Shown here in pieces: positions 5,577-26,533 of a DNA stretch of 29,459 bases. The translations under genes were made by a program, and so were the position numbers. Position 1 is the stretch's first letter, and every line of letters starts with the position of its first letter. The notes beneath the pieces were generated by a model. It saw only the letters and a program-made list of their open reading frames with translations. It was not told where the DNA came from and searched no databases. The stretch lies in the UHGV virus genome UHGV-0099905; one strand, 5' to 3'. The stretch is from a virus.

Positions 5577-6600
5577 GACTAGCCCATGAATCTCCAGACA
5601 GTTGGTTACAGCGCCTGCTGGGCAAAAAAACCATGGAAAACGAGCTGCTGAAAGAAGCCGTTGAATATGGCCGACAAAAAAAGTGGATAGCGCACGTGCC
5701 CTTGTTGCCGGAGGATGGTGAATAAGCCTTGTCAGTCGTTGCCTCCGGGTCTCACGTGCGCAACTGCATGCCATGGCCCGTCGGTCGAAGGGCTGGCAGG
5801 ATCGTCGGTGCAAGCGCAAGCCTGATGATACTGAAGCGCTGGCTCGTATCCATACCGTTATCGACGATCTGCCCACCTATGGTTATCGTCGTGTATGGGT
5901 ACTGCTGCGCAGACAATCAGAAACTGACGACATGGCGGTGATCAATGCCAAACGCGTATACCGCATCATGCGTCAGAATGCGCTGCTGCTTGAGCGTAAA
6001 CCGGCAATACCGCCCTCGAAGCGGGCGCATAGAGGGAAAGTGGCCGTTGGAGAAAGTAACCAGCGGTGGTGCTCCGACGGCTTCGAGTTCAGCTGTGATA
6101 ACGGTGAAAAACTGCGGATCACGTTCGCGCTGGACTGTTGCGATCGCGAGGCACTTCACTGGGCAGCAAGTACCGGTGGATATGACAGTGAAACCGTGCA
6201 GGACGTCATGCTGGGTGCAGTAGAGCGTCGCTTCGGTAACAGGCTGCCGACATCCCCCGTTGAGTGGCTGACAGACAACGGTTCAGCCTACCGTTCTCAT
6301 CAGACGCGTCAGTTCGCCAGAATGGTAGGACTGGAGCCAAAACATACGGCGGTACGTAGTCCAGAAAGCAACGGAATGGCGGAGAGCTTCGTGAAAACGA
6401 TGAAGCGCGACTACATCAGTATCATGCCAAAACCTGACGGGTTAACAGCGGCAAAGAACCTTGCGGAGGCCTTCGAACATTACAACGAATGGCATCCGCA
6501 CAGTGCACTGGGATATCGTTCTCCACGGGAATATCTGCGGCGGCGAACCAGTAATGGGTTAAGCGATAAAAAGTGTCTGGAAATATAGGGGCCAATCCAC
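5577..6600 (+). mobile_element. IS2-like element with internal deletion removing most of orfA (about 1.0 kb versus about 1.3 kb for intact IS2)
   Basis: Left end TAGACTAGCCCATGAATCTCCAGACA matches the IS2 left inverted repeat as recalled; it is joined directly to the last roughly 35 codons of InsC ([38 protein letters not shown]), followed by complete orfB; right end near GGGGCCAATCCA. Confidence 0.75.
5773..6588 (+). CDS. IS2 InsD-like transposase catalytic subunit (orfB)
   Basis: Very close match to IS2 InsD as recalled ([10 protein letters not shown]..., DNGS.YRS, rve integrase-core motifs). Confidence 0.85.
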
Positions 6601-6729
6601 ATGGAAATGTTTTTGATTAAAATAAAAAATATTCTTTTATATTGCCCTATCATTTTTATTTTTAGTAATTTATTAGCAAGAGATTGCGATCTCTTTTTTA
6701 GTTAAAGCAAATTAGTTAAGGATTAGTCT

Positions 6730-7278
6730 ATGAAACGTTCAGTTATTGCGGCTACTGTATTAGCATCTCTTTTTATGAGCGCAGGATCATTTGCAGCAGA
6801 AGGGAGTACAGAGGGTCAGTTAACTATTAACGGTAAAGTCACAGAGACTACATGTCAGTTCCTGAGCGGTAGTGAGAATACAACAATTTCGATGAGCGAA
6901 ATTGGTCGTGATCAATTTGAAAATGTAGAAGTTGGCTCCCCCGTTACTACTTATTCAAATACAACATCTTTACCACTAAAAGTTAAGTGTACCGGAGGAA
7001 AAGAACCAAGAATTACCTTCTCCAGCACCCAATTTGAAGGAACGGATTCAAATATTATTCGCAATACTGGTGATGCTAGCGGTGTCGGTTTCGCTGTTTT
7101 TTTGGGGAAAGGTACTGATTCTAGCAACCGGATTTCTGGTAATAGACCTATTAAGTTAACACCAACTACTAATGGTGAACATGAGTTACATTTTACGGCA
7201 CAATACGCAAAAACAGCTGTTGATGTGGGTACTGGCGAAGTTAGTTCTGCGATAACAATGACCGTTGTAACAGATTAA
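6730..7278 (+). CDS. Fimbrial major subunit (chaperone-usher pathway)
   Basis: Signal peptide MKRSVIAATVLASLFMSAGSFA, about 180 aa, first in operon before chaperone and usher; AGGA SD upstream. Confidence 0.7.
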   Translation: MKRSVIAATVLASLFMSAGSFAAEGSTEGQLTINGKVTETTCQFLSGSENTTISMSEIGRDQFENVEVGSPVTTYSNTTSLPLKVKCTGGKEPRITFSSTQFEGTDSNIIRNTGDASGVGFAVFLGKGTDSSNRISGNRPIKLTPTTNGEHELHFTAQYAKTAVDVGTGEVSSAITMTVVTD

Positions 7279-7333
7279 CATGATGTTTATCGGCGGCTTC
7301 GGTCGCCGATTTTCAATCGCAAGGATTGTTATC

Positions 7334-8014
7334 ATGAAAAAATTAATAGCCTTCTTACTAACCGTAACGGTCCCATCTGCGTGGGGCGGTGTCTATATTT
7401 ACGGCACTCGCGTTATTTATCCGGAACAGAAAAAAGAGATTGCAGTTCAGTTAATGAATGAAGGTGAGCGTAGTGCTCTTGTTCAGTCGTGGATTGATGA
7501 TGGCGATGCCAGCCTTCCTCCGGAAAAGATTAGTGTACCTTTTGTGCTGACTCCACCGGTAGTTCATGTTAGTAAGGGTGAAGGACAGCAACTGAAAATT
7601 AAACAACTGGCGAACACTCTACCTAAAGATCGCGAAAGTCTGTTCTTCCTTAATGTACTGGATATTCCACCTAATAGTGAGAAATACGAAGGCAAGAATC
7701 TGATTAAATTCGCGATGCAAAATCGTATCAAATTTATTTATCGCCCAAAGGGTATAACAAGAGTCGATAAAGAGAGTTTTTCCCGGATTAATATCAGACC
7801 CGTTGATAGAGGCATTAACATAAAAAATAATTCAGCGAACTGGATAACCATTCCTGAATTAACCGGGAATGCGAAAATTAATAAGGAGACACTACTGCTG
7901 GCACCCTGGTCAGATCAGACTGTCAAAACGACATCCGTTGTTAACTATTACAATGTTACTCTGATTGATGATCATGGAAACTATTTGAGTGAAAAAATAA
8001 AAACTGCCAAATAG
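7334..8014 (+). CDS. Periplasmic fimbrial chaperone (PapD-like)
   Basis: Classic chaperone N-terminal pattern GVYIYGTRVIYPE...; start moved to ATG at 7334 (MKKLIAFLL signal peptide) behind AAGGA, rather than the track start at 7280. Confidence 0.85.
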   Translation: MKKLIAFLLTVTVPSAWGGVYIYGTRVIYPEQKKEIAVQLMNEGERSALVQSWIDDGDASLPPEKISVPFVLTPPVVHVSKGEGQQLKIKQLANTLPKDRESLFFLNVLDIPPNSEKYEGKNLIKFAMQNRIKFIYRPKGITRVDKESFSRINIRPVDRGINIKNNSANWITIPELTGNAKINKETLLLAPWSDQTVKTTSVVNYYNVTLIDDHGNYLSEKIKTAK

Positions 8015-8031
8015 ATTATCAGGGATTGGTT

Positions 8032-10518
8032 ATGTCAAAGTTTAATTCTATTACACTGGCTATTCTGTCAGTATTAGCGACTTCGCATACATGGGCTAAG
8101 GGTGAAACGTTTAATACCAATTTTATGATTGGTGGTTTAAATGGGGAGAAAATTTCTAACTACCATATTGATAGTGATAAGCCGATGCCGGGTATCTACG
8201 CTATGGATGTTTATCTGAATAATCAATGGCGTGGCCACTATGATATTGATATTAAAGATGACCCTAATGCAACATGTTTATCCATGGAGCAATTAAAGCA
8301 AATTGGGATCCTCACTGAAGGAATTAGTATCGATAAAGGCGTAGAATGTGTACCACTTCGGGATGCTGTCCAGGGAGGCAGCGTCGACTATGATATTGGG
8401 CATTTTAACCTAAAATTAAGCGTGCCCCAAGCCTATGTTCTGGAATATGAACATGGCTATGTTCCGCCTGAAGCATGGGATCGCGGGATTAACGCATTAT
8501 ATACATCTTATTATGCCAGTCAGTATTACAGTGATTATAAAAACGGCGGAGATGATAAAAGTAGCTATCTAAATCTGAACAGTGGGTTAAATCTCCTGGG
8601 CTGGCAGCTGCATTCAAATGCCAATTATACGAAAAGCGACGAAAACAGCGGTAAATGGAAGAGTAACACGCTATATCTGGAACGTGGAATTCCACAAATT
8701 CTCGGCACGTTTCGCGCAGGTGAAATGTATACTGGTTCTGATGTTTTTGACTCCGTGCGTTTTCGCGGCGTGCGCCTTTGGCGCGATATGCAGATGTTAC
8801 CGAACTCTAAACAGAATTTTACTCCTGTGGTACGCGGCGTTGCCCAGAGTAACGCACTCGTCACCATAGAACAAAATGGTTTTGTGGTTTACCAGAAAGA
8901 AGTACCGCCAGGCCCATTCGCCATTGATGATTTGCAACTTTCTAATGGTGGGGCAGATTTGGAAGTTATCGTCAAAGAAGCTGATGGTTCAACGTCGTAC
9001 TATCGGGTGCCTTATTCATCGGTGCCAAATATGTTGCAACCTGGCGTTTCTAAATATGAATTTTCAGCCGGACGTAGTCATATTGAAGGAGCCAGCAATC
9101 AATCTGATTTTATCCAGGGAAGCTATAAGCATGGTTTCAACAATTTGCTGACAGGTTATGGCGGCACGCTGTTATCTGATAATTACTCATCGTTTGTTCT
9201 TGGAACAGGATGGAATACACCGATTGGTGCTATATCGGTTGATTTTACCCATTCATACAGCAAGCAAGACAACGGTGATGTGTTTAACGGTCAAAGTTAT
9301 CAGATTGCCTGGAATAAATATCTCTCTCAGAGCGGAACACAATTTTCTCTGGCGGCCTGGCGTTATTCCTCTCGGGGTTATCGTACTTTTAACGATCATG
9401 TATGGGCAAATAACAAAAATAGATACAATCGAGAAGACAACTCAGGCTATGACATTGCCAACTACTACCAGTATGATTTTGGTCGCAAGAATAGCTTTTC
9501 TTTAAATATCAACCAGTCATTACCGGAAAATTGGGGGTATCTGGCGATCAGCGGTCAATGGCGAGATTACTGGGAACGTAGCGGGACAGGGAAAAATTAC
9601 CAACTAAGCTATACGAACTCATGGGAACGTCTAAGTTATACCTTGTCGGTTAGCCAGACATACGATGAGGATAACAGCGAAGACAGACGCATTAACTTAT
9701 TTTTCTCAATCCCCTTCTCGTGGCGTGATAATATCACCGAAAAACGACGAGATTTATTTATCTCTAACTCGACCACATTTGATAAAGACGGCTACCAGTC
9801 AAATACTACCAGCCTCAGTGGTGTAGCTGGGAACCGTGATCAGTTCAGCTACGGGGCTAACTTTAGCCATCAACAACAGGACAGCGAAGCAACAGCAGGT
9901 GGAAATCTGATTTGGCGTGCGCCAGTGGCTACCATTGGTGGCAGCTATAGCCAGTCGAAAAAATATCAACAGATAAGTGGTAATATTCAAGGTGGTTTAG
10001 TCGCGTGGTCAGACGGGATAGCACTGGCTCCCAGACTTTCAGATACATTTACCATCGTCCATGCTCCGGGGCTGGATGGGGCTGCGGTACAGGGGTATCG
10101 TTACCTGAGCACGGATAGCCGAGGTTACGCTATTTATGACAGCCTGACGCCGTATCGTAAAAACACGTTGATGCTGGATACTTCTGACAGTCAAAGCGAT
10201 GTGGCACTACTGGGCAACCGTAAAAGCACCGCTCCTTATCGTGGGGCCGTTGTGATGACGCAGTTTGATACTGACAAACGTAAACCCTGGTATTTCCTTG
10301 CTCAGCGCCCGGATGGTTCTCCATTATCGTTCGGTTATGAAGTTGAAGATGAAAGCGGTAAGAATGTGGGCTTGGTAGGACAGGGAAGTCGGATATTTAT
10401 TCGCACTGATGATGTTCCCGCATCGATTCGCGTCTCGGTTAATAAACAGCAGGAACAATTCTGTACTATTACCTTTGATAAAGTTATCGAAGAGAATAAA
10501 GTTTATATTTGTCGTTAA
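8032..10518 (+). CDS. Fimbrial outer-membrane usher
   Basis: About 830 aa, signal peptide, usher N-terminal FNTNF motif, beta-barrel-type composition; ATG at 8032 behind AGGGA. Confidence 0.9.
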   Translation: MSKFNSITLAILSVLATSHTWAKGETFNTNFMIGGLNGEKISNYHIDSDKPMPGIYAMDVYLNNQWRGHYDIDIKDDPNATCLSMEQLKQIGILTEGISIDKGVECVPLRDAVQGGSVDYDIGHFNLKLSVPQAYVLEYEHGYVPPEAWDRGINALYTSYYASQYYSDYKNGGDDKSSYLNLNSGLNLLGWQLHSNANYTKSDENSGKWKSNTLYLERGIPQILGTFRAGEMYTGSDVFDSVRFRGVRLWRDMQMLPNSKQNFTPVVRGVAQSNALVTIEQNGFVVYQKEVPPGPFAIDDLQLSNGGADLEVIVKEADGSTSYYRVPYSSVPNMLQPGVSKYEFSAGRSHIEGASNQSDFIQGSYKHGFNNLLTGYGGTLLSDNYSSFVLGTGWNTPIGAISVDFTHSYSKQDNGDVFNGQSYQIAWNKYLSQSGTQFSLAAWRYSSRGYRTFNDHVWANNKNRYNREDNSGYDIANYYQYDFGRKNSFSLNINQSLPENWGYLAISGQWRDYWERSGTGKNYQLSYTNSWERLSYTLSVSQTYDEDNSEDRRINLFFSIPFSWRDNITEKRRDLFISNSTTFDKDGYQSNTTSLSGVAGNRDQFSYGANFSHQQQDSEATAGGNLIWRAPVATIGGSYSQSKKYQQISGNIQGGLVAWSDGIALAPRLSDTFTIVHAPGLDGAAVQGYRYLSTDSRGYAIYDSLTPYRKNTLMLDTSDSQSDVALLGNRKSTAPYRGAVVMTQFDTDKRKPWYFLAQRPDGSPLSFGYEVEDESGKNVGLVGQGSRIFIRTDDVPASIRVSVNKQQEQFCTITFDKVIEENKVYICR

Positions 10519-10528
10519 AGGATTTTTT

Positions 10529-11539
10529 ATGAAGAAATATTGGTTTTTGTTTTTGTTGATTATTCCATTTTTTGGGCAGGCGAAATGTACCCCTAAGGGA
10601 ACTTGGACAGCAACTCAACCAATTACACTGGACTTAACAACGGATTCAACAATAGTAAGTTTTAATCCCAACCTGCAAGGATCTTATGAATGTAACTCGA
10701 GGGGGGATAAGATGTATTTTGCAACAACGTTAGATGACTATATTGTTGAAATGAAAGATGGCTCCAGCAATAAGTCTATTTTTATTAAATTAAAGCTTGA
10801 GGCTGATGGATTTCCTGTAGAAACGAGTGGTTCGCTTCTGTCGCCTAAAACCTATTCTGTTGCTGATACCATTAATAATAAACAACTGAAGTTAACGGCC
10901 TCATATATACCACCAACTAAATATAGAAGTGATCGTGGTGAAGCGGTAGAGGGGGATTCATTCGAATTGAAAAAAGCGGCGGCTAATTTTTTGTCTGATA
11001 ATACATGTAGTTCAAATATTCTTTCATGGATAGCATGCTATGTTTTTGGATTGTTAAATAAAGGTGAAGCTTACGAACAAAAACTAACCATTAATGTTAA
11101 ACACAAACCCACAACCTGTCGTTTCTCGCAACCGACTTACGAAATAAGAATACCAGAAACAACGATAAGTGAAATGCTATCTGCCAATAACTCAAAATCA
11201 GGTTCTGTAGATCTGGTCCTAAATTGCGATAGTGTCTATAACGTCACGACTAATCCAGTGACTTTTAAAGTTGAGCGTGGTGTGTGGGATGATAGTGGAA
11301 CAATATTGAAAAATACATTGTCCGATGGTGCTAAGGGTGTAGGGTTCCAGATTTACAATGGTAATGCAACGACACCGTTAAAGCTGGGCGATACCCTGAT
11401 GAACAGATTACCTAAAATGGCGGCTATTCAGGAGCAGTACATCTTCCCGATTACCGCAAAATACGTTCGCGTGAAAGAGGAAGCTTTACAGCCTGGGGAA
11501 GTTCAAGGCCAGGCGATATTTGCCGTATCCTACGACTAA
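10529..11539 (+). CDS. Fimbrial minor subunit / tip adhesin candidate (two-domain size, about 337 aa)
   Basis: Signal peptide MKKYWFLFLLIIPFFGQA starting at ATG 10529 after SD AAAGGA; the track start at 10409 overlaps the usher and is rejected. Confidence 0.6.
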   Translation: MKKYWFLFLLIIPFFGQAKCTPKGTWTATQPITLDLTTDSTIVSFNPNLQGSYECNSRGDKMYFATTLDDYIVEMKDGSSNKSIFIKLKLEADGFPVETSGSLLSPKTYSVADTINNKQLKLTASYIPPTKYRSDRGEAVEGDSFELKKAAANFLSDNTCSSNILSWIACYVFGLLNKGEAYEQKLTINVKHKPTTCRFSQPTYEIRIPETTISEMLSANNSKSGSVDLVLNCDSVYNVTTNPVTFKVERGVWDDSGTILKNTLSDGAKGVGFQIYNGNATTPLKLGDTLMNRLPKMAAIQEQYIFPITAKYVRVKEEALQPGEVQGQAIFAVSYD

Positions 11540-18303: not shown

Positions 18304-18573
18304 ATGTCCGCACTGAAAAAGCAGCGCATCGATTTGAGATTAACCGATGACGATAAAAGCATCATCGAGGAAGCTGCCGCAATGTCTAACCAGAGCATTA
18401 CCCAGTTCATGGTTAGCAGTGCATCCGAACGTGCCGTGAAGGTGATAGAGCAACACCGTAGACTGGTTCTAAGTGAAGAGTCCTGGAATCTGGTTATGGA
18501 TGCTATAAGCAATCCTCCGGCACCGAACGACAAGCTGAAACGAGCTGCCAATCGTCTGAAAAGCATGGAGTAA
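18304..18573 (+). CDS. tacA: DUF1778-type RHH antitoxin (TacA-like)
   Basis: 89 aa; RIDLRLTDDDKSIIEEAAA...QFMV...AISNPPAPNDKLKRA pattern typical of the family; followed 8 nt later by a GNAT gene. Confidence 0.8.
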   Translation: MSALKKQRIDLRLTDDDKSIIEEAAAMSNQSITQFMVSSASERAVKVIEQHRRLVLSEESWNLVMDAISNPPAPNDKLKRAANRLKSME

Positions 18574-18580
18574 TTTACTC

Positions 18581-19102
18581 GTGAGCAATACGACGATCGA
18601 GATTTTCTCTGGAGAGAAAGATTATGATCTAAACGGTTTTGATTGCGGCGAAGAGTCACTAAACGCATTTTTGACCAACCACTTAAAAAGACAGCATGAA
18701 GGAAAAATTCTTCGCGCTTATGTGCTTTGCACTAAAGAAGAAATACCAAAGGTATTAGGTTATTACACTTTGTCAGGCAGCTGCTTTGAGAAAGAAAACT
18801 TACCTTCAAAGAGTCAGCAAAAGAAAGTGCCTTATCGGCATGTCCCAAGTATCACTTTAGGCAGACTGGCTTTGGACAAATCTCTTCAAGGTCAGGGGCT
18901 TGGCTCAATGCTTGTAACTCACGCAATGCGTGTTGTGTACAATGCATCTCTTGCGGTAGGCATTCATGGGCTTTTCGTTGAGGCGTTGAACGATAAAGCC
19001 AGGGCGTTTTATAAAAGTTTGGGCTTTATCCAGCTGGTTGGTAACAACGATCGTTCTTTGTTCTATCCAACAAAATCTATCGAAAAATTGTTCGAAGAAT
19101 AA
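18581..19102 (+). CDS. tacT: GNAT-family acetyltransferase toxin (TacT/AtaT-like)
   Basis: 173 aa GNAT fold pattern (LGYYTLSGSCF..., QGQGLGSMLV) paired with a DUF1778 gene; GTG start. Confidence 0.8.
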   Translation: MSNTTIEIFSGEKDYDLNGFDCGEESLNAFLTNHLKRQHEGKILRAYVLCTKEEIPKVLGYYTLSGSCFEKENLPSKSQQKKVPYRHVPSITLGRLALDKSLQGQGLGSMLVTHAMRVVYNASLAVGIHGLFVEALNDKARAFYKSLGFIQLVGNNDRSLFYPTKSIEKLFEE

Positions 19103-19134
19103 TGTGTCCCCCTCATTTGAGGGGAACTTCGACA

Positions 19135-19320
19135 TCACCAACCGCAAACTCTCTCTCCCATCGTATTGTGAAAAAGGATTTGGCGTTCGGTTTCTTCGGT
19201 CATTACATCGTCATTGCTGATATAAATAGGTTCAGCGCCATCGCAGAACAACACGCTGGTGGTCTGTGGCTTAATTACGCACCCACTTATCATGCAGCTC
19301 ACGATGAATGGCAGAAGCAT
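19135..19320 (-). CDS. Outer-membrane spanin candidate (lipoprotein), embedded in a different frame in the i-spanin gene
   Basis: Lipoprotein signal MLLPFIVSCMISGC with lipobox; overlaps the 3' part of 19271-19522 out of frame, the classic Rz/Rz1 arrangement. Confidence 0.5.
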   Translation of the reverse strand: MLLPFIVSCMISGCVIKPQTTSVLFCDGAEPIYISNDDVMTEETERQILFHNTMGERVCGW

Positions 19321-19522
19321 CTTTCTGACGTATTTCACTGTTCGTCTCATTCACCACTTCCACTGTGCTTTGAAGACGCTTGTTATCTTCCCGCCGTTCT
19401 TTCTCTTCCATACTGCGTCTGGCCATATACCCGCCATAGGAGTATGCGCCGACAAGGACTAGAATGACGGCGGCCAGAGTGAACAAAGCGGATTTCATTT
19501 TGAACAACAGGCCGTCGAACAT
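19271..19522 (-). CDS. Inner-membrane spanin candidate (N-terminal TM, charged periplasmic helix)
   Basis: 83 aa; TM helix SALFTLAAVILVLVGAY followed by a charged helical segment; downstream of the putative lysin. Confidence 0.5.
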   Translation of the reverse strand: MFDGLLFKMKSALFTLAAVILVLVGAYSYGGYMARRSMEEKERREDNKRLQSTVEVVNETNSEIRQKDASAIHRELHDKWVRN

Positions 19523-19524
19523 AC

Positions 19525-20217
19525 TTACACTAATCCTTTCTGGTGCTTGCGAACCTGGGACCAGGCAATGAATGCTGCCACAAGAATGGTAGCTACGCCA
19601 AAGATGATGCGTACCGTATCTCCACTGGAGATATTGCCTTGCGCTTTATCCATTGCGGCAGAAACTTGAGGCATAACGTCAGCAATTTGTGCAAGGCCAA
19701 TACCTGCAGTGACTGTAGCACCTGTGGTTTCTTTTGTTACAGGAACGGCTTTTACAGCCTTTACCGGTTTGACAATGCCGGCACGTCGCAGCCCTTCTTC
19801 GATAAGTTCTGGTGTATACCAGCTATTGGGGGTTTTCAGCGGACCTCGGCCATTTTCATGTCTAATGATCGCCTCTACCAGCGGTCTTAAGGTCTCGTAG
19901 TCATGCAGATCGATAATCATATCTGGTGCTACTCCAACGGCTTTGGATACCTCGTTCACATAAGCCAAAGTGTTGTTCTCATGTGGAGGCGCCCAGCGTT
20001 CGATGACTTCGCGGATCGTATCAATGCTGGAGCCATCTTTTGCGCGGCGCTTGTCGTGGTAAGTAATGAGTGTCACTGCCAAAGCCCGAATCCCCCACAC
20101 GGGGTCTTTGAACGTGCAGAAACGCGGTTCGGCAGGGTTGTCAATTAGCCCCTGCCACGGCGCTCCTTTATCAAGATTACCGGGGTTGTTATTACGAATG
20201 CCTCTCGGAGTTTTCAT
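19525..20217 (-). CDS. Putative cell-wall hydrolase (endolysin-like) with C-terminal hydrophobic anchor; family not recognised
   Basis: Position between holin-like gene and spanins; N-terminal motif RGIRNNNPGNL; C-terminal TM IIFGVATILVAAFIAWSQV; start placed at ATG 20217 behind AGGAGA. Confidence 0.35.
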   Translation of the reverse strand: MKTPRGIRNNNPGNLDKGAPWQGLIDNPAEPRFCTFKDPVWGIRALAVTLITYHDKRRAKDGSSIDTIREVIERWAPPHENNTLAYVNEVSKAVGVAPDMIIDLHDYETLRPLVEAIIRHENGRGPLKTPNSWYTPELIEEGLRRAGIVKPVKAVKAVPVTKETTGATVTAGIGLAQIADVMPQVSAAMDKAQGNISSGDTVRIIFGVATILVAAFIAWSQVRKHQKGLV

Positions 20218-20230
20218 CCTTGATCTCCTG

Positions 20231-20554
20231 TTATTGCAATCCATTTTTTACGCCATACGCGGCCAATCCTAAAAGCAGTACGGTAATAATGAACGACGTT
20301 ATTTTCGAAACAATGCCGCCAAAGAACCCACTGGAGATGGTGTCGAGCCGGTTAAGAAGTTTGTCCAGATTGGAGTGCTGAATGCTGTGTTGTGCGGGCG
20401 TCATATCGCCAAAGTAGGTTTTGAGCTGGTCATTGACCTCCTGACCAATTTCCTCGCGTATTTCTTTACCTAATTTGCCTACGACTTCCCGAGCAACGAT
20501 TGAGGCGATGCGCTCAACCTGTTCAGTTGTGACTCCCGCCATCTCGTTCGACAT
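20231..20554 (-). CDS. Holin-like small membrane protein (single C-terminal TM)
   Basis: 107 aa from the ATG preceded by GGAGGA; C-terminal TM ITSFIITVLLLGLAAYGV; first gene of the lysis-like cassette; an extended -10 (TGGTATAAAT) lies upstream. Confidence 0.4.
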   Translation of the reverse strand: MSNEMAGVTTEQVERIASIVAREVVGKLGKEIREEIGQEVNDQLKTYFGDMTPAQHSIQHSNLDKLLNRLDTISSGFFGGIVSKITSFIITVLLLGLAAYGVKNGLQ

Positions 20555-20620
20555 GTTTTCCTCCATGAAAAGTCAAATCGGGATGGCGAATTTATACCAC
20601 AAATATTACCTTTTTTGTAG

Positions 20621-20632
20621 GTAAGTACTTAC
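20621..20632. promoter_or_regulatory. Perfect 12-bp palindrome GTAAGTACTTAC (motif copy) upstream of the lysis-like cassette
   Basis: Overlaps the stop codon of the Gly-rich gene; followed at about 25 nt by TGGTATAAAT. Confidence 0.5.
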
Positions 20633-21423
20633 ACACGAGAACCGTATATTGCTCCGACGGCGATCCATTGAGGGGCATTACCCATGACAGCAGCCCCAGC
20701 AGCCCCACCGCCATATCGATTTCCAGAGTTGCCATAACACGCTCCACCTGCCGCTCCAACATTGCCACCAGTACCGCCATGATTAGCGTTAACCCCAGAC
20801 CCAGTACCTGGAGCAGTAAGCGAAGCGGCCCCAGCAGCAGCACCACCATTGCCTGAATACCTACCTGCAGCACCAAATGGCCTGCCACCGCCACCACCTA
20901 CCAGATAGGCTCCGACAAAGCCGGCATCCCAATAGCCACCACCGCCACCACCGCCACCACCGCCACCACCGGCAATAGCACCATTATTGGTAATACGTAG
21001 TCTAGTTCCTATTGCATTCTTAATCGCGGCCCCACCAGCAGAACCCGCTGAGTTTGACCCGCCATTTCCTCCTCTCCCATATATGGTAACTCCACCATTA
21101 ATTACGAGGTTAATATATGAGTTTGATAAGTCACCAGGAAAGTCTAGGCAAGGGACTGTACTACTTGTAGAAACTAAATCCCCTGTAATAGTAACTACTA
21201 CAGGTGTAGAGCCAACAGAGCGTAAATATGATATTAATGTGTCTTTGTTATAATTGTGATTAGCCCCTATTGAGTAGTAAATCTCTTTTGACCTACCGGC
21301 CATCTGTGACATATTTCCTGCTGCCGACAATTGGACTGTGGTACGGGCAGCACTCATCCAACGTTGCCCTGTTTCGGAAACCGCTGATGATCCTATCCAT
21401 CCTGGAACATTTGAAATTGACAC
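20629..21423 (-). CDS. Glycine-rich protein (264 aa) downstream of the side tail fibre gene
   Basis: ORF in track; GTG start after GAGAGGG; central G12 run and GG/GN repeats; N-terminal non-repetitive domain. Confidence 0.6.
   Translation of the reverse strand: MSISNVPGWIGSSAVSETGQRWMSAARTTVQLSAAGNMSQMAGRSKEIYYSIGANHNYNKDTLISYLRSVGSTPVVVTITGDLVSTSSTVPCLDFPGDLSNSYINLVINGGVTIYGRGGNGGSNSAGSAGGAAIKNAIGTRLRITNNGAIAGGGGGGGGGGGGYWDAGFVGAYLVGGGGGRPFGAAGRYSGNGGAAAGAASLTAPGTGSGVNANHGGTGGNVGAAGGACYGNSGNRYGGGAAGAAVMGNAPQWIAVGAIYGSRV
20936..20973. repeat. Simple-sequence repeat (CCACCACCG)x4 encoding the poly-Gly run
   Basis: Seen directly; the 9-bp unit keeps the reading frame. Confidence 0.9.
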
Positions 21424-21485: not shown

Positions 21486-24400
21486 TCATATTTTTTGTTC
21501 AATGATTGCTGCCAGCTCTTTAACAGCCTCAATAAGAAGTGCTATTTGTGCAGAATTTGAAATAGTCAGAACATCTTCGCCATTTGCATCTTTGTAAGCT
21601 GAAACAGCTTCCGGTAAAACCTTTTGGAGTTCCTGAGCAACAACACCCGCCTCACGACGAACCGTACTAGATTGAAAATTTTCCTTTTTATCGTAAATTA
21701 ATCCGCTCAGTACTTTCACCTTACTCAGAGCATTTTTAATCGGTGCGAAGTTACTTTTAAGTCTGGCATCAGAGCGGATATAAACATCGTTAAAGTTACC
21801 ATTACCTCCACAAACCCAAGTACCATCATTTTGAAGATATGCGTTCGCATCCGTGCCATTCGCGGTACGTGAGTTGTTGATCATGTAAAAACCAAACTGA
21901 CTGTTTCCCAAGCCACCCACAAAGAATTTGCGATCCGCGTGGTCTTGTCTCAACAACGCTTGTGCAGAGCTTGTGCTTACAGCATTCTTCCCGAAGATGA
22001 CGTTCTGGCTCCGCATATCGATCCATGCGCCAGAACCGCTGTTGATAGAGTAGCTGTTGGCATAAACCCATGCACTTGACGTGATATCCCCCGTTACACT
22101 CAACGGCTTAAGGCTTTGCAACGTGCCATTAGTGAACCGAAAAACATGGGCATTATTTGCATAAACATCAAGAATGCCATCACCATTCTGTTTTAAGCCA
22201 GTATCATTATCGCCTAATACGATAGAGTTTCCGCCAAGCGCATTCGACACCCCTAATCCGACGCTACCGTTAATTACTGCCCCATTACTAATATCAACGC
22301 CATTTCCAAGTGTCACTCGTCCTGTTGTATTGCTAATATATAGTGGACGTAAAGGTCCCCAACTTCCATGTTGATCACCTGAATTTGTCAACAGAAAGTA
22401 AGTATTCGCCCCATCATTTCGAATGAAGAAGCCATAATTCCCATATACTGCACGGAAAGCATTTGCTGTTTCGGAAACCACCTCTCCATTTATACTCATT
22501 GTAATAGTATTGTCAGTGTTTCTCTGACTGTAAAAGTGATAGCCTTGATCGTCTTTGAATTCAATTACCGTTGGCCTTGAAGAATTTCCCCATACCTGCA
22601 TATAAGTATTCAGTGACGGAGTTTCAGTAGTCTGCACCCTGAATACTTTCCCGTTTGAATTTTGAAATCCAAGTGACCCGGTTAAAGTTCCTCCGGTTAA
22701 TTTCAAAAAGAGTGCATCAATCCATCCAGCGAAACCCGGTTTATTGATATACACGTTGCCATCATTGGCAAATATACCACCACCAGGTGATCTTAATGGC
22801 TGCGACATATTCGCCAAAGTCAATTGGCCTGACATTGAATCGCCAGCTCGATTAAAGTCGCGCCTCCAGCCTGGCGCATAAGAGTCACCGTGGTTGATGT
22901 AGGTAAACTGAGCCTTGACGGTTCCGCCATTCGTTGCCGTCGTGGGGGTAGTGACGCGAATCGTCATAGCATCCCGAACCCCCATAACTTCAACTACAGC
23001 GCCAGCGAGTTGTATATTCCCACAACCGGTATCCGTGATGATTTTATTGGCAGCGTAAGACCAAGAGCCTTTGCACATCCAGTATGGATAATTGAATGCC
23101 CCCTGAGACTCCAACCACTCAATAAATTGCGCCGTCGTCCAGTTGTTGCTGTCTCCCCCAATACTGATACTGCCGCCAGCAGCTTTCGCTGCGCCAATAT
23201 TTTTTGCGAAGGTGTCTTTGCTAGGTATATCCGCGCCATTCTGGTCTTTCCGAAGGCGTGTTTCAGCATTGTCGTATGCGGCCTTCACGGCCTTTGATGT
23301 GGCCGCATAACTTTCACTGCTATTGTTGGTATCACTGTTAAGCTGAACAAGCCCCTTTTGCGACGTGGTGGCGTCCTGTGCAGTGTATTTGCCATTAGCA
23401 AGATCATATGCTGTCTTTACTGCTTTTGGGGTGGCTGCAAATGACTCCGATTCGCTATTAGTTGAGCTACTAAGTTGTACTATTCCCTTATTCGTCGTGC
23501 TTGCATCCTCAAGCGCCACGGCGGATGCAATATCCTCAGCTCGTTTTGCCGCTGTCTCAGAGCGTGTTGCCGCGGATTCTGCCGCATTTTTGCTCTGCGC
23601 AGCCGCCGTCGCACTGTCTGCCGCTTCCGTCGCCTTCGTTGATGCCGTTGTCGCACTCTCTGCTGCCGCTGACGCCTGGCGAGCGGCCTCATCTTTTGAA
23701 GATGACGCCGAGGAAGCTGAAACAGAGGCAGAGCTTGCAGATTCGGCTGCTGTCTCCTTAGAAGCAGCGGCATTGTCTTCTGAAGTCTTTGCATTGGTTT
23801 CAGAAGATTTTGCCGCCTCTGCTGACTTTTCCGCAGCTGTTGCCTGTTTCGTCGCCTCTGTCGCTTTAGCGGTGGCATTTGCCGCGGATAACGAAGCGCT
23901 TTCCGCAGACTTTTCTGCCGACGTTGCACTTGATGAAGCACTATCCGCGCTTACTGAGGCCGCGCTCGCTGACGTTTCTGCCGCAGATTTCGAACTGTTT
24001 GCAGACAATGCACTCTGTTCGGCAGCAGATTCAGACGCTTTTGCGTTTGTCTCTGATGCTTTTGCTGCCTTACATGAATTTGCAGCTTCTGTAGCTGATG
24101 ATGCTGCCGCGTTTGCACTCGATGAAGCGTTAGTCTCTGATAATTTAGCCGCATCCTTAGATGCAGAGGCACTGGACGCTGATGTGGCTGCCTCCGATGC
24201 TTTAGTCGACGCCACAGATGCTGATTCTGCTGCCGCTTCTTTTGCCGCTTCTGCGTTTGTTTCAGATTTTTCCGCAGCAGCTGCACTCTCACTCGCCGCA
24301 CTTTGTGAAGATACCGCAGCGGATGCACTTTGAGATGCCTGAGAGGCTTTTTCTACAGCAGTGTTGGCACTTTCTGCCGCAGCGACAGCACTGGCCGCCG

Positions 24401-24875
24401 CCTCCCGAGCTTTGTCTCCAGCGGCCTCAATCGCATCGGTGTTATTTTTATACCACTCAACGTTTTCGTTATGCTCGTTGACGATCTGCATTAGCGGCTT
24501 AACGGTCACTTCTGTACCGTCTTCACGCTCGATTGTCACATCATCCAGAGCGGTCAACCAACTGCGCATGGACTTGGAATCAGCCGACATACGCGACATT
24601 AGTGCAGTAAAGCGCGCACTAAACTGAGTTAAGTCGCCTTCATAGGTCGTAATGATTCGGCACGGAACTTTAGATTGAGTTTCGCCGGTATAAGGTTCTG
24701 AGAGGACAATGACCGTATCACTGGTTACGCGCTTGACCTCATACAACTTATTGTCAGGACCAATGACAATCATGCCCGGTAACACGCCGTTTTCGGTCAA
24801 ATTCCAACGTGTTCCGATGCCTGATATTGTGTCGCTTCCTTTTGTAAATGTAACAGTACCTTCCCTGTACCACAT
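21486..24875 (-). CDS. Side tail fibre protein (lambda Stf-like) with Ala/Ser-rich coiled-coil region, phage fibre repeats and C-terminal S74-type intramolecular chaperone
   Basis: KRAEDIASAVALEDASTTNKGIVQLSSSTNSESESFAATPKAVK closely matches the lambda Stf repeat as recalled; C-terminal SDARLK...VLPEAV chaperone/autocleavage pattern; start moved to ATG 24875 behind AAGGAG (the track ORF begins 31 codons upstream). Confidence 0.85.
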   Translation of the reverse strand: MWYREGTVTFTKGSDTISGIGTRWNLTENGVLPGMIVIGPDNKLYEVKRVTSDTVIVLSEPYTGETQSKVPCRIITTYEGDLTQFSARFTALMSRMSADSKSMRSWLTALDDVTIEREDGTEVTVKPLMQIVNEHNENVEWYKNNTDAIEAAGDKAREAAASAVAAAESANTAVEKASQASQSASAAVSSQSAASESAAAAEKSETNAEAAKEAAAESASVASTKASEAATSASSASASKDAAKLSETNASSSANAAASSATEAANSCKAAKASETNAKASESAAEQSALSANSSKSAAETSASAASVSADSASSSATSAEKSAESASLSAANATAKATEATKQATAAEKSAEAAKSSETNAKTSEDNAAASKETAAESASSASVSASSASSSKDEAARQASAAAESATTASTKATEAADSATAAAQSKNAAESAATRSETAAKRAEDIASAVALEDASTTNKGIVQLSSSTNSESESFAATPKAVKTAYDLANGKYTAQDATTSQKGLVQLNSDTNNSSESYAATSKAVKAAYDNAETRLRKDQNGADIPSKDTFAKNIGAAKAAGGSISIGGDSNNWTTAQFIEWLESQGAFNYPYWMCKGSWSYAANKIITDTGCGNIQLAGAVVEVMGVRDAMTIRVTTPTTATNGGTVKAQFTYINHGDSYAPGWRRDFNRAGDSMSGQLTLANMSQPLRSPGGGIFANDGNVYINKPGFAGWIDALFLKLTGGTLTGSLGFQNSNGKVFRVQTTETPSLNTYMQVWGNSSRPTVIEFKDDQGYHFYSQRNTDNTITMSINGEVVSETANAFRAVYGNYGFFIRNDGANTYFLLTNSGDQHGSWGPLRPLYISNTTGRVTLGNGVDISNGAVINGSVGLGVSNALGGNSIVLGDNDTGLKQNGDGILDVYANNAHVFRFTNGTLQSLKPLSVTGDITSSAWVYANSYSINSGSGAWIDMRSQNVIFGKNAVSTSSAQALLRQDHADRKFFVGGLGNSQFGFYMINNSRTANGTDANAYLQNDGTWVCGGNGNFNDVYIRSDARLKSNFAPIKNALSKVKVLSGLIYDKKENFQSSTVRREAGVVAQELQKVLPEAVSAYKDANGEDVLTISNSAQIALLIEAVKELAAIIEQKI

Positions 24876-24895
24876 GTTCTTTTTCACTCCTTGAA

Positions 24896-24919
24896 GTGTG
24901 GGCGTCCCCCCGCCCACAC
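24896..24919. other. GC-rich hairpin (9-bp stem GTGTGGGCG / CGCCCACAC, 6-nt loop) in the 5' leader of the tail-fibre gene
   Basis: Seen directly between the motif copy and the RBS. Confidence 0.5.
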
Positions 24920-24920
24920 A

Positions 24921-24944
24921 AATAGGTATATACTTACTTATTAT
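24921..24944. promoter_or_regulatory. Motif copy AATAGGTATATACTTACTTATTAT
   Basis: Near-identical to the 15867-15890 copy; 45-70 nt upstream of the tail-fibre ATG. Confidence 0.55.
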
Positions 24945-25012
24945 CCATGATACAAAATCCTTTTGCACTAAGAAAACACGCTATATACATTGCTGCTCAT
25001 TATTCCTATCAA

Positions 25013-26533
25013 TTAACTGATGCCCGACATGGAAAATGCGCCACTTCCACGGCTGATTAGCATCACGGGCGAATAAATATGTGTCTGTGATGAACTGGTC
25101 ACTTTTACCGTAACAGCAACAGTTCTTGAGGTAACATTGTTAAAAGCAGCGTAAAGAGTGCCACCGACGCCTGTAGAACTTGTCGAATTAAGATCAGGGT
25201 CTCTGTATGTTGCCCCCTTACCAGTGGTTGCGGTCTTCGTCACTCCATTGCAGGTAAATTGGGCTGCAACAGGGCCGACGCCCCCCGTATATACATTTAT
25301 TGCCACATAAATATTTTTGGGCAATGCAGACGAAGAAGAGTCTGTATATGTCATTGTATATGTGCCGTTGTAACGAACTGAGAAGTCATTGCCCACATAC
25401 ATGTTAGCGACATCGCCTACGAAGTGATCTGCTTGTACCGTGCCTCTGAATGTTCCGCTGGTAGCCTGTATTTCTCCTGTGAATTTGCCATTCGTTGCGT
25501 AAACGGTGCCTCTAACAGTTACATTGTTAAACTCTGAGTTCCCGTTTTTATTAATATGCCACCCCGTCATCCCGCTTGAGTAATCGTTGGACTGAATGAA
25601 GTTGCCTATTTTGGCGTTATCAATGGTGCCGTTCTTGATATAAGCTCCGTTCATATAAGCCACACCGGCATCAATAACGAATGGCGTTGTAATTTTCCCA
25701 TTAACGGAGTTCACCAAACCAAAGCGATCTGCCTGCACCAAAAACTGCGATAGACCTGTTGTGTCGATGCCCAACGCTATGCCGGCAACATATTTTTGGC
25801 CTCCGCTGGTGGAGGTTTCCATTTTCAGCGTCCAGGCTGTTGATACCTTCTTGTTCGTATCAGCAATAGCTGTGGCCTGTTGTTGAATTGTTGCTGTATT
25901 TCCATCTACTGATGCTTTTAAGGTGTCAACTCTCCCACTTAGTGCATTGTCGGCGCTTGACGCATCAAACGTCACCTTGAAGCGCATCGTCTGGTGTTCA
26001 GCGCCGACTCGCTCGGTTTTCTCGCGTTTGTCCTCATCGACCGGCTCGTCATCGCCACGGGAGAGCGCTTCCAGCGCTTCAAGATCGATAACGGACGCTT
26101 TGGCGAGTGTTGCCGCCATTTCGTCGTCATACGGGGCGATATCGGACAACCGGTAGTCGATTTCAGACTGGATTTCTTCGATTAAGCGCTGCAAAGCGAC
26201 CTGATCGTCTTCGCCGTAGCGCTCGTTGTCGACGAGGGAAATCTGTTTAGCCACCAGATCGTTAATTTTGCCCACGGAGATGACGGGAACCGTTGAAATG
26301 CCCTGCTCCATCGCGGCACGCCAGCGGTGTTCACCACCGAGGATCTCAAAAATGCCCCCGTCCAACTCCCGCGCCAGAATTGGCTTAAAAAAGCCCAATT
26401 TTTCGATAGAGCCTTTCAGTTTTTCGAAGTTTTGCGCCCCAACGGAGTTGGTATTCCAGGGATTCGGACGCAGGTTCGCGACTTCCACCTGCAGAATCGT
26501 AATTTTCACACCCATAATTCTGATACAATCCAT
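25013..26533 (-). CDS. Chimeric protein: N-terminal ParB/Srx-like nuclease domain fused to a lambda J-type (host-specificity / tail-tip) C-terminal region
   Basis: N-terminal LRPNPWN...ILGGEHRWRAA resembles ParB box motifs; an acidic linker follows; the C-terminal half (FLVQADRFGLVNSVNGKITTPFVIDAGVAYMNGAYIKNGTIDNAKIG...) resembles the C-terminal receptor-binding part of J-like proteins; single uninterrupted ORF. Confidence 0.55.
   Translation of the reverse strand: MDCIRIMGVKITILQVEVANLRPNPWNTNSVGAQNFEKLKGSIEKLGFFKPILARELDGGIFEILGGEHRWRAAMEQGISTVPVISVGKINDLVAKQISLVDNERYGEDDQVALQRLIEEIQSEIDYRLSDIAPYDDEMAATLAKASVIDLEALEALSRGDDEPVDEDKREKTERVGAEHQTMRFKVTFDASSADNALSGRVDTLKASVDGNTATIQQQATAIADTNKKVSTAWTLKMETSTSGGQKYVAGIALGIDTTGLSQFLVQADRFGLVNSVNGKITTPFVIDAGVAYMNGAYIKNGTIDNAKIGNFIQSNDYSSGMTGWHINKNGNSEFNNVTVRGTVYATNGKFTGEIQATSGTFRGTVQADHFVGDVANMYVGNDFSVRYNGTYTMTYTDSSSSALPKNIYVAINVYTGGVGPVAAQFTCNGVTKTATTGKGATYRDPDLNSTSSTGVGGTLYAAFNNVTSRTVAVTVKVTSSSQTHIYSPVMLISRGSGAFSMSGIS

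Follow-up and report, generated by a model that had tools for sequence, protein, structure and literature searches.

The virus genome UHGV-0099905, a stretch of 29,459 nucleotides (nt) that is called the window below, carries four co-oriented open reading frames (ORFs) on the minus strand at positions 20554-19135. The questions raised by this locus are whether the four ORFs form a lysis cassette and what its first gene does. In an earlier note, made from the sequence alone, the locus had been read as a lysis-like cassette of atypical topology, in which a holin-like and a lysin-like protein, both tail-anchored, precede an embedded spanin pair. The four ORFs with the features described there were present, and the lysis-cassette reading held, given that the 230-amino acid (aa) protein is homologous to biochemically and structurally characterized endolysins and that the last two genes are spanin homologues. 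The locus is best explained as the late lysis cassette of an SSU5-like phage-plasmid, of the kind found in the Casjensviridae phages Chi, Enc34 and BSPM4, and we give this explanation as a whole, including a partner role for gene 1, a probability of roughly 0.62. Judged from sequence comparison, three of the four cassette genes are common to Chi-like cassettes and gene 1 is not. Annotations of the cassette exist in SSU5-like phages, and its lysin belongs to a class that has already been published and crystallized; the only real lead of the cassette is the family of gene 1, phrog_5093.

Endolysin, spanins and layout of the cassette

The cassette and its predicted terminator consist of the following features, in the order of transcription.

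20231..20554, minus strand: gene 1, a protein of 107 aa, member of phrog_5093, with one C-terminal transmembrane segment (TM)
19525..20217, minus strand: gene 2, the endolysin, 230 aa, of the Enc34/M4Lys type, with a C-terminal TM
19271..19522, minus strand: gene 3, the inner-membrane spanin (i-spanin, Rz-like), 83 aa, with an N-terminal TM, phrog_1026
19135..19350, minus strand: gene 4, the outer-membrane spanin (o-spanin, Rz1-like), a 71-aa lipoprotein in another frame, phrog_1275
19106..19127, minus strand: hairpin, predicted terminator, GC-rich, directly 3' of the o-spanin stop (terminator scan, consensus match)

The products of genes 1 to 4 matched, in this order, phrog_5093 (E=6e-68), phrog_873 'endolysin' (E=1.5e-85), phrog_1026 'Rz-like spanin' (E=4e-22) and phrog_1275 (E=3e-25). 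Because of these family matches, together with the match of the lysin to a crystal-structure chain, the four ORFs are not chance ORFs.

Gene 2 is shown by homology to encode a PHA02564/Enc34-type peptidoglycan glycosidase, which is joined by a linker to a C-terminal membrane module. The protein starts MKTPRGIRNNNPGN, with the motif RGIRNNNPGN at aa 5-14, and its PHA02564 catalytic domain covers approximately aa 1-155 (nt 20217-19753). The earlier note had proposed profile and structure searches of the 230-aa protein as a check; besides phrog_873, at the E-value given above, these returned the Enc34 endolysin's catalytic domain (PDB 7Q47; phmmer E=1.3e-55, aa 10-160 of the 239-aa ORF). Over its full length, including the membrane module, the protein was 52-56% identical to the lysins of phage Chi (gp38), Serratia phage JS26 and Pseudomonas phage SS2019XI, and its residues W75 (in ERW), Y86 (in LAY) and E121 (in RHENG) aligned with Trp79, Tyr95 and the catalytic Glu131 of Enc34. 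No model of Pfam or NCBIfam was matched by the endolysin. The earlier remark that the lysin fits no recognizable signature arose because these two databases have no model for it, and it was not borne out as a sign of novelty: in the PHA02564/Enc34 family a structure has been solved, the catalytic Glu has been mapped and N-acetylglucosaminidase activity has been reported.

The TMs of both gene 1 (aa 81-102) and the lysin (aa 202-222) had been correctly placed at the C-terminus. In the endolysin this segment (nt 19614-19552) is the only strong TM, with a mean Kyte-Doolittle hydropathy (KD) of 1.93, and it is followed by the basic tail RKHQKGLV (net charge +3). Upstream of it, a weakly hydrophobic helix at aa 164-189 (nt 19728-19651; 54% Gly/Ala/Ser/Thr, mean KD 0.89) resembles those of signal-arrest-release (SAR) proteins, and the loop between helix and TM (aa 190-201) has a net charge of -1. 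By hydropathy, no hydrophobic segment was found at the N-terminus of the endolysin, which sets it apart from the N-terminal SAR endolysins. The contrast drawn earlier with the N-terminal SAR enzymes stood, but the architecture as such is known, given that endolysins with a C-terminal transmembrane domain (TMD) were described in 2019-2022, also for LysAP, an enzyme of glycoside hydrolase family 24 (GH24).

Published work on this class is informative about function. The purified Enc34 domain is muralytic on permeabilized Gram-negative cells, and the full-length Enc34 protein is toxic. M4Lys of phage BSPM4 lyses E. coli by itself; the C-terminal TMD is required for this and azide does not block it. 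N-acetylglucosaminidase activity was shown for M4Lys, for which its authors also inferred an endopeptidase activity, and ORF_37, located upstream of M4Lys, is dispensable and slightly delays lysis. In the Siskin genome note, an N-in/C-in two-helix TMD was predicted and a new endolysin class was proposed. LysAP, from Acidovorax phage AP1, is a GH24 lysozyme with a C-terminal TMD.

When the C-terminal modules of four Enc34-type endolysins were searched alone against PHROGs, only phrog_873 was significant, and the matches to holins were insignificant. Two of these four modules (in the window, nt 19525-19770) gave weak, non-significant matches (E=0.1-0.25) to the C-terminal part of phrog_17373, a peptidase family that also matches an M15 endolysin, which hints at a similar membrane module on other catalytic domains. 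Many phage records contain the PHA02564-type catalytic domain by itself; some place it in a gene annotated as an internal virion protein, and in PDB 9vvp it makes up the N-terminal end of Gp29, a chain of 1295 aa.

Genes 3 and 4 are likewise shown by homology to encode an overlapped two-component spanin, of the kind that disrupts the outer membrane. In the i-spanin, an N-terminal TM (approximately aa 6-29) is followed by a charged domain of about 55 aa in the periplasm; the protein was 29-35% identical to the i-spanins of JS26 and SS2019XI (BLASTP E=1e-11 to SS2019XI gp28), and the i-spanin of Chi is also homologous. The o-spanin has a basic n-region and a lipobox, ISG/C, at aa 21-24 (nt 19290-19279), and its mature part of 48 aa, with Cys at positions 1, 13 and 46, belongs to a protein 51% identical to Chi gp40. 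By the Lol sorting rule, the residue that follows the lipidated Cys sets the membrane destination of a lipoprotein, and the Val found at this +2 position points to the outer membrane. The PHROG spanin matches, the lipobox and the different reading frame agree with the earlier description of an i-spanin with an out-of-frame o-spanin lipoprotein. The pair is not embedded, however. The o-spanin gene starts within the i-spanin gene, overlaps it by 80 nt and ends at 19135, 136 nt beyond the i-spanin stop at 19271; because it outruns this stop, the architecture is classed as overlapped. In the spanin census of 2018, the i-spanin of SSU5 forms an overlapped singleton family and the o-spanin of SSU5 falls in the 'Chi' family, together with those of Enc34 and Redjac.

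With regard to expression signals, gene 1 is preceded by the Shine-Dalgarno sequence GGAGG at 20564-20560, 6 nt before the ATG at 20554, and a longer version of 111 aa, starting at the ATG at 20566, has no ribosome-binding site. Gene 2 has AGGAG 7 nt upstream of its start and follows gene 1 at a spacing of 13 nt. The promoter scan of the minus strand upstream of gene 1 found none; a candidate extended -10-like string, TGgTATAAA at 20599-20591, was picked out by eye. From its sequence and position, the hairpin at 19106-19127 is probably the terminator of the cassette, located between the cassette and a convergent gene for a TacT-like toxin of the GCN5-related N-acetyltransferase (GNAT) type, and it may possibly be bidirectional.

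Gene 1 and the phrog_5093 family

The only hydrophobic segment of the gene 1 product is its TM (nt 20314-20249), after which a tail of 5 aa, KNGLQ, is left. No match to Pfam or NCBIfam was obtained for gene 1; among PHROGs only phrog_5093, of 'unknown function', was significant, and no described holin family was matched. Gene 1 is small and adjoins the endolysin gene, and with a tail of five residues it lacks the charged hydrophilic C-terminal domain of holins. The name 'holin' for gene 1 draws on its position; no holin family supports it, and distant relatives of gene 1 almost always come with a separate small membrane protein, as described below.

A profile search of 1.84 billion representative proteins returned 62 relatives of gene 1 at E<=1e-3, and a word-index search returned close relatives only. 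When 28 full-length relatives (94-143 aa) were aligned, the TM was C-terminal, and all 29 aligned members matched phrog_5093. In this 29-member alignment, at 21-54% identity, G49, H56 and H60 (nt 20410-20375 in the window) were invariant, as part of the motif [YH]FGDMTxxQHxxQHxR, which closely precedes the TM. None of the 29 members matched PF10779 (XhlA). Other Pfam matches among them (IpaB, Bcl-2 and others; E of about 0.002-0.03) were rejected as noise. The AlphaFold2 model of gene 1 made with the 29-sequence alignment has two confident helices, aa 10-48 and aa 53-103, the second of which runs into the membrane, with a predicted local distance difference test (pLDDT) score of 85.6; with only 8 close sequences, the model was unusable (pLDDT 45.6). 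A Foldseek search of the model against PDB and BFVD gave nothing at E<=0.001, as expected for a two-helix protein.

The proteins encoded upstream of the endolysin in Chi, JS26 and SS2019XI have 109-157 aa and an N-terminal TM, and no similarity of gene 1 to them (Chi gp37, SS2019XI gp26 and the JS26 upstream protein) was detected by BLASTP. When a distant family member was searched against GenBank phages by tblastn, only SSU5-like phages were found, which implies that phrog_5093 is unstudied in culture outside the SSU5-like group. A 2.9-kb record of Klebsiella phage Kpn_R1 was considered as a cloned cassette and rejected, as it is an unverified partial genome without a functional study.

The genomic contexts of the family were then compared. 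At more than 200 SSU5-like loci (some of them duplicated between scans), the order was invariably family gene, Enc34-type lysin, i-spanin and o-spanin; these loci include Kluyvera, Buttiauxella, Xenorhabdus, Photorhabdus and Morganella, with gene 1 identity down to 51-55%. Distant contexts were found mainly by exact-protein look-ups, as metagenome scans with the pattern YFGDMT gave almost only SSU5-like loci and a first metagenome scan with the pattern LSDNFW gave nothing. Eight independent non-SSU5 loci were obtained, with the following genes after the family gene.

L088, L090, L263 and L264: a soluble Peptidase_M15_3 endolysin is the next gene; 2-TM protein of 71-91 aa with a charged tail, with GPxNxxIxxWFxER in three of the four
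L261: a 137-aa M15-like protein is the next gene; 2-TM protein with the same GPxN...WF motif
L087 and L091: a 3-TM protein of 93-101 aa is the next gene, then a phrog_669 endolysin and spanins; the 3-TM protein of L087 matches phrog_8226 'holin'
L262: a GH108 endolysin is the next gene; 1-TM protein of 58 aa

A separate small membrane protein was present in all eight distant contexts (2-TM in five, 3-TM in two and 1-TM in one). In the SSU5-like and Chi-like cassettes, where the endolysin has its own TMD, there was no separate small membrane-protein gene inside the cassette. From the upstream tail gene, the family gene was separated by 74 nt in the window and, where measured (four distant loci), by 64-103 nt; the distance to the next lysis gene ranged from a 28-nt overlap to a 13-nt gap. 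Because in every context it follows tail genes and adjoins the next lysis gene or overlaps with it, phrog_5093 is clearly a lysis-cassette gene, independent of the endolysin type.

It is accordingly very unlikely that gene 1 encodes a membrane protein foreign to lysis, such as a tail-fibre-associated protein or a moron for superinfection exclusion. Such an assignment would fit its constant position after tail-fibre or adhesin genes, the three membrane or exclusion morons (Cor and others) that SSU5 carries in the same gap, and the lack of an annotated function for phrog_5093. In nine contexts with five endolysin types, however, the family gene is separated from the upstream tail gene by the intergenic gap, keeps its tight junction with the next lysis gene and accompanies the lysis genes regardless of the upstream tail genes.

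Several side observations were made at these loci. Extra ORFs are inserted in the SSU5-like cassette at L173 and L178 (Photorhabdus asymbiotica) and at L174 and L177 (Xenorhabdus, Morganella). Those that separate gene 1 from the endolysin gene encode 51 aa and 218 aa, and those that separate the endolysin gene from the spanin genes encode 146-219 aa. The 2-TM proteins at L088:5905-6123, L261:4284-4517, L263:4291-4566 and L264:4305-4565, of 72-91 aa, form a conserved family with GPxNxxIxxWFxER, a charged C-terminal tail and weak phrog_6637 matches; they always stand just after an M15-type endolysin in cassettes opened by phrog_5093, and they are a candidate unannotated holin family. Downstream of the lysis and spanin genes, a gene for a PhoH-like ATPase was present at L087, L261, L263 and L264. 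Several of the PhoH-bearing distant sequences are about 98-109 kb long, near SSU5, which suggests a broader SSU5-like group with swapped endolysin modules.

Proposed mechanism and role of gene 1

Since a separate small membrane protein almost always accompanies its distant relatives, gene 1 is taken to be an accessory rather than the hole-former. Our tentative reading is that it acts as a co-holin or activator, and the mechanism proposed here relies on published endolysin homologues that are about 54% identical to gene 2. The endolysin would be inserted post-translationally, most likely as a hairpin in which the helix at aa 164-189 and the TM at aa 202-222 span the membrane. The loop at aa 190-201 would be exported, the basic tail would be cytoplasmic, and the enzyme would remain tethered on the inner side of the membrane until the breach. 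The hairpin was chosen because it is the best fit to the charge distribution, and it matches the Siskin prediction. The TMs of gene 1 and of the endolysin end 5-8 residues from the C-terminus and can leave the ribosome only after termination, which points to post-translational insertion and fits the azide result obtained with M4Lys.

By inference from the homologues, the membrane module of the endolysin would itself supply a permeabilizing, holin-like activity, by which the enzyme would reach the wall, with neither a holin nor Sec needed. Gene 1 would be a C-terminally anchored two-helix partner that sets when the hole-forming module acts, and would not form the hole itself; this module would be the endolysin's own TMD in the SSU5-like phages and the separate small membrane protein in other phages. 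The logic of tail anchoring favours an N-in orientation for gene 1. The finding that one family precedes five unrelated endolysin types, with another small membrane module always in the cassette, suggests a modular trigger subunit. More speculatively, phrog_5093 might be an unrecognized, widespread class of C-terminally anchored lysis-timing proteins, marked by the invariant Gly and the His-x3-His, which act on the hole-forming module of the cassette as Gram-negative functional analogues of XhlA and gp24.1; although this is possible, we lean towards doubting it. If it were true, a TMD-endolysin would amount to an enzyme fused to a holin, with a separate trigger subunit in control.

A precedent for such a partnership is provided by the 24.1-25-26 genes of phage SPP1, where gp24.1, with a C-terminal TM, and the 2-TM holin gp26 are both needed together; their PBSX counterparts are XhlA and XhlB.

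It is rather unlikely that gene 1 is instead the sole holin, a single-TM, pinholin-like protein whose timed depolarization would activate or release the tethered endolysin, as pinholins do for SAR endolysins. Gene 1 comes first in the cassette, 13 nt from the endolysin gene, and encodes a small membrane protein that is strongly conserved across Enterobacterales, to the 51-55% identity given above, always with the same partners; moreover, the SSU5-type cassette has no other small multi-TM gene. In the speculation of the Enc34 authors, a holin that accompanies a TMD-endolysin works as a pinholin, and single-TM holins are known, for example HolAP, which is paired with LysAP and its C-terminal TMD. 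Set against this, gene 1 matches no holin family, its five-residue tail is not the typical charged hydrophilic one, the cassettes of distant relatives also hold separate small membrane proteins (most with 2-3 TMs) beside soluble endolysins, and the homologous M4Lys needs no holin for lysis.

Most known antiholins are isoforms of a holin or sensors in the periplasm, not proteins anchored at the C-terminus. This speaks against the antiholin role, in which gene 1 would bind the membrane module of the endolysin, or a separate holin elsewhere, and keep it inactive until late infection, and we regard this role as unlikely, a little more so than that of a sole holin. An endolysin able to lyse alone would need restraint, the gene 1 family co-occurs with candidate holins elsewhere, and the invariant His pair could, speculatively, be a sensor or an interaction site. 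The non-homologous single-TM ORF_37, when co-expressed with M4Lys, slowed lysis, and its authors raise the control of premature lysis as a possibility; ORF_37 is, however, unrelated to gene 1, and the same authors caution that the delay may reflect lower M4Lys levels. That gene 1 has some other role altogether is given only a small chance.

Several points weigh against the co-holin or activator reading and the mechanism around it. The role proposed for gene 1 draws only on position and co-occurrence, and the eight remote contexts are a small sample. The small membrane proteins found there are putative holins, of which one matches a PHROG holin family and the 2-TM ones match phrog_6637, of unknown function. 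M4Lys, when overexpressed, lyses without a partner, so a co-holin is not strictly needed, and the literature leaves unexplained how a catalytic domain that faces the cytoplasm reaches the wall. When the phrog_5093 family alignment was compared with SPP1 gp24.1 by hhalign, the probability was 1%, and the XhlA/gp24.1 analogy is thus architectural only. In gene 1, the residues that flank the TM on the C-side are somewhat more basic than those on the N-side, and the positive-inside rule argues for N-out. Finally, the statement that SSU5 has no holin anywhere was dropped, as small 2-TM ORFs lie elsewhere in its genome and a conventional holin outside the cassette is possible.

The small 2-TM proteins of SSU5 (NC_018843) are encoded at 55747-55947 (SSU5_061), 58095-58274 and 80558-80746, outside the cassette; they have basic C-terminal tails and holin-like features.

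The replicon and the neighbouring genes

The cassette region was identical (100%) to that of several plasmids of E. coli and Enterobacter, and its identity to the phages SSU5 and Cyrano was 80-84%. In the GenBank records of these two phages the four genes are labelled holin, endolysin, Rz and Rz1, gene 1 being a 'putative holin'. In the RefSeq annotation of the plasmids they are 'hypothetical' or 'membrane protein', and the o-spanin is unlisted in the gene tables examined. This labelling affects hundreds of enterobacterial plasmids, with the consequence that intact lysis cassettes on antimicrobial resistance (AMR) phage-plasmids and on their remnants go unrecognized. In SSU5, the cassette forms the end of the late structural operon, after the tail fibre, an adhesin and three membrane morons.

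An ORF of 506 aa in the window (25013-26533, minus strand) is an in-frame fusion of aa 1-192 of an SSU5-type ParB (99.5% identity) with the C-terminal part of the tail-tip protein J (from about aa 1210), and it marks a deletion that took out the head and tail morphogenesis genes. Of 470 matching plasmids, only 5 had this junction. One of the five is pLAO59, an IncY multidrug-resistance plasmid, with which the window is collinear at 99.9% and in which no homologue of a terminase, portal, capsid or tape-measure protein was found. From the deletion and from the loss of these virion genes in pLAO59, the window is concluded to be a phage-plasmid remnant on an AMR plasmid. The cassette is intact here, and the DNA of its region is identical to that of an intact phage-plasmid. 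Because the head and tail genes are gone from the near-identical plasmid pLAO59, the cassette copy on the remnant of about 30 kb is probably an intact but orphaned relic, unable to serve virion release.

Next to the cassette, a TacA-like antitoxin (PF08681, E=3.5e-26) and a GNAT toxin (TacT/KacT-like) are encoded as a pair at 18304-19102 on the plus strand; the pair is convergent with the lysis cassette, the hairpin at 19106-19127 is common to both, and in Cyrano the same toxin-antitoxin pair is annotated as a KacT-type toxin. On the other side of the cassette, a T-even-type gp38 adhesin with Gly-rich motifs (20629-21423, minus strand; PF05268, E=2e-70) is preceded by a tail fibre of 1160 aa, rich in Ala/Ser repeats (21486-24968, minus strand). 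Adhesin and fibre together make up a myovirus-style receptor-binding module on a siphovirus-like phage-plasmid; at the adhesin position SSU5 has a different, shorter adhesin and the three membrane morons. At 5773-11539 on the plus strand, a transposase of the IS3 family of insertion sequences (rve) is followed by a chaperone-usher fimbrial operon with a fimbrial subunit, a PapD-like chaperone, an usher of 830 aa and a fimbrial protein of 376 aa. This transposase and fimbrial cargo is also present in intact E. coli SSU5-like phage-plasmids.

With respect to known systems, the spanin pair is like the P2 LysB/LysC type and the 'Chi' o-spanins, in that an i-spanin with an N-terminal TM is combined with an out-of-frame lipoprotein that starts inside its gene and ends beyond it; both proteins here are, however, very short (83 aa, and 48 aa when mature). 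The endolysin shares with Enc34 ORF39, M4Lys and Chi gp38 the catalytic domain, the Glu, Trp and Tyr positions, the linker, the amphipathic Gly/Ala-rich helix, the TM and the basic tail, along with the lack of an N-terminal signal and the homologous i- and o-spanins that follow. It differs in that those enzymes come from siphoviruses of the Casjensviridae and this one from an SSU5-like phage-plasmid, and in that the upstream partner there is of the N-terminal-TM 'lysis protein B'/gp37 type, whereas here it is the unrelated phrog_5093 protein with its C-terminal TM. LysAP and HolAP offer the same combination of an endolysin with a C-terminal TMD and cationic residues, where the TMD of LysAP is required for toxicity and lysis, and of a single-TM partner, the 111-aa holin HolAP; the catalytic domain of LysAP is GH24, and its export is reported to be Sec-dependent, unlike that of M4Lys.

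In SAR endolysin/pinholin systems lysis is possible without a large-hole holin. As in those of phage 21 and P1 Lyz, the endolysin here is membrane-tethered and has a weak Gly/Ala/Ser/Thr-rich helix beside a stable TM, like TMD1 and TMD2 of the pinholin; the anchor is C-terminal instead of N-terminal, and the route of M4Lys is Sec-independent. The putative 'class IV holin' gp37 of Siskin and Chi (N-terminal TMD, predicted N-out/C-in) has, like gene 1, about 110 aa, crosses the membrane once and carries a soluble part of about 70-80 aa that is helical and charged, and its gene stands immediately before that of a TMD-endolysin. There is no detectable sequence similarity between the two, the TM of gp37 is at the opposite end, and the G...H...H motif is missing from it.

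The comparison of phrog_5093 with SPP1 gp24.1 and PBSX XhlA differs in its hosts, which are Gram-negative here, and in the SSU5-like phages, which are without a separate 2-TM gene and in which the two-helix partner would lie within the endolysin. What the proteins have in common is a length of about 90-110 aa, a helical N-terminal part, a single C-terminal TM, a very short tail and the first place in the cassette, and in the distant phrog_5093 cassettes the gene order of C-terminal-TM protein, endolysin and 2-TM protein is that of 24.1-25-26. Comparison within phrog_5093 offers a tractable handle on how C-terminally anchored endolysins reach the wall and on what times them.

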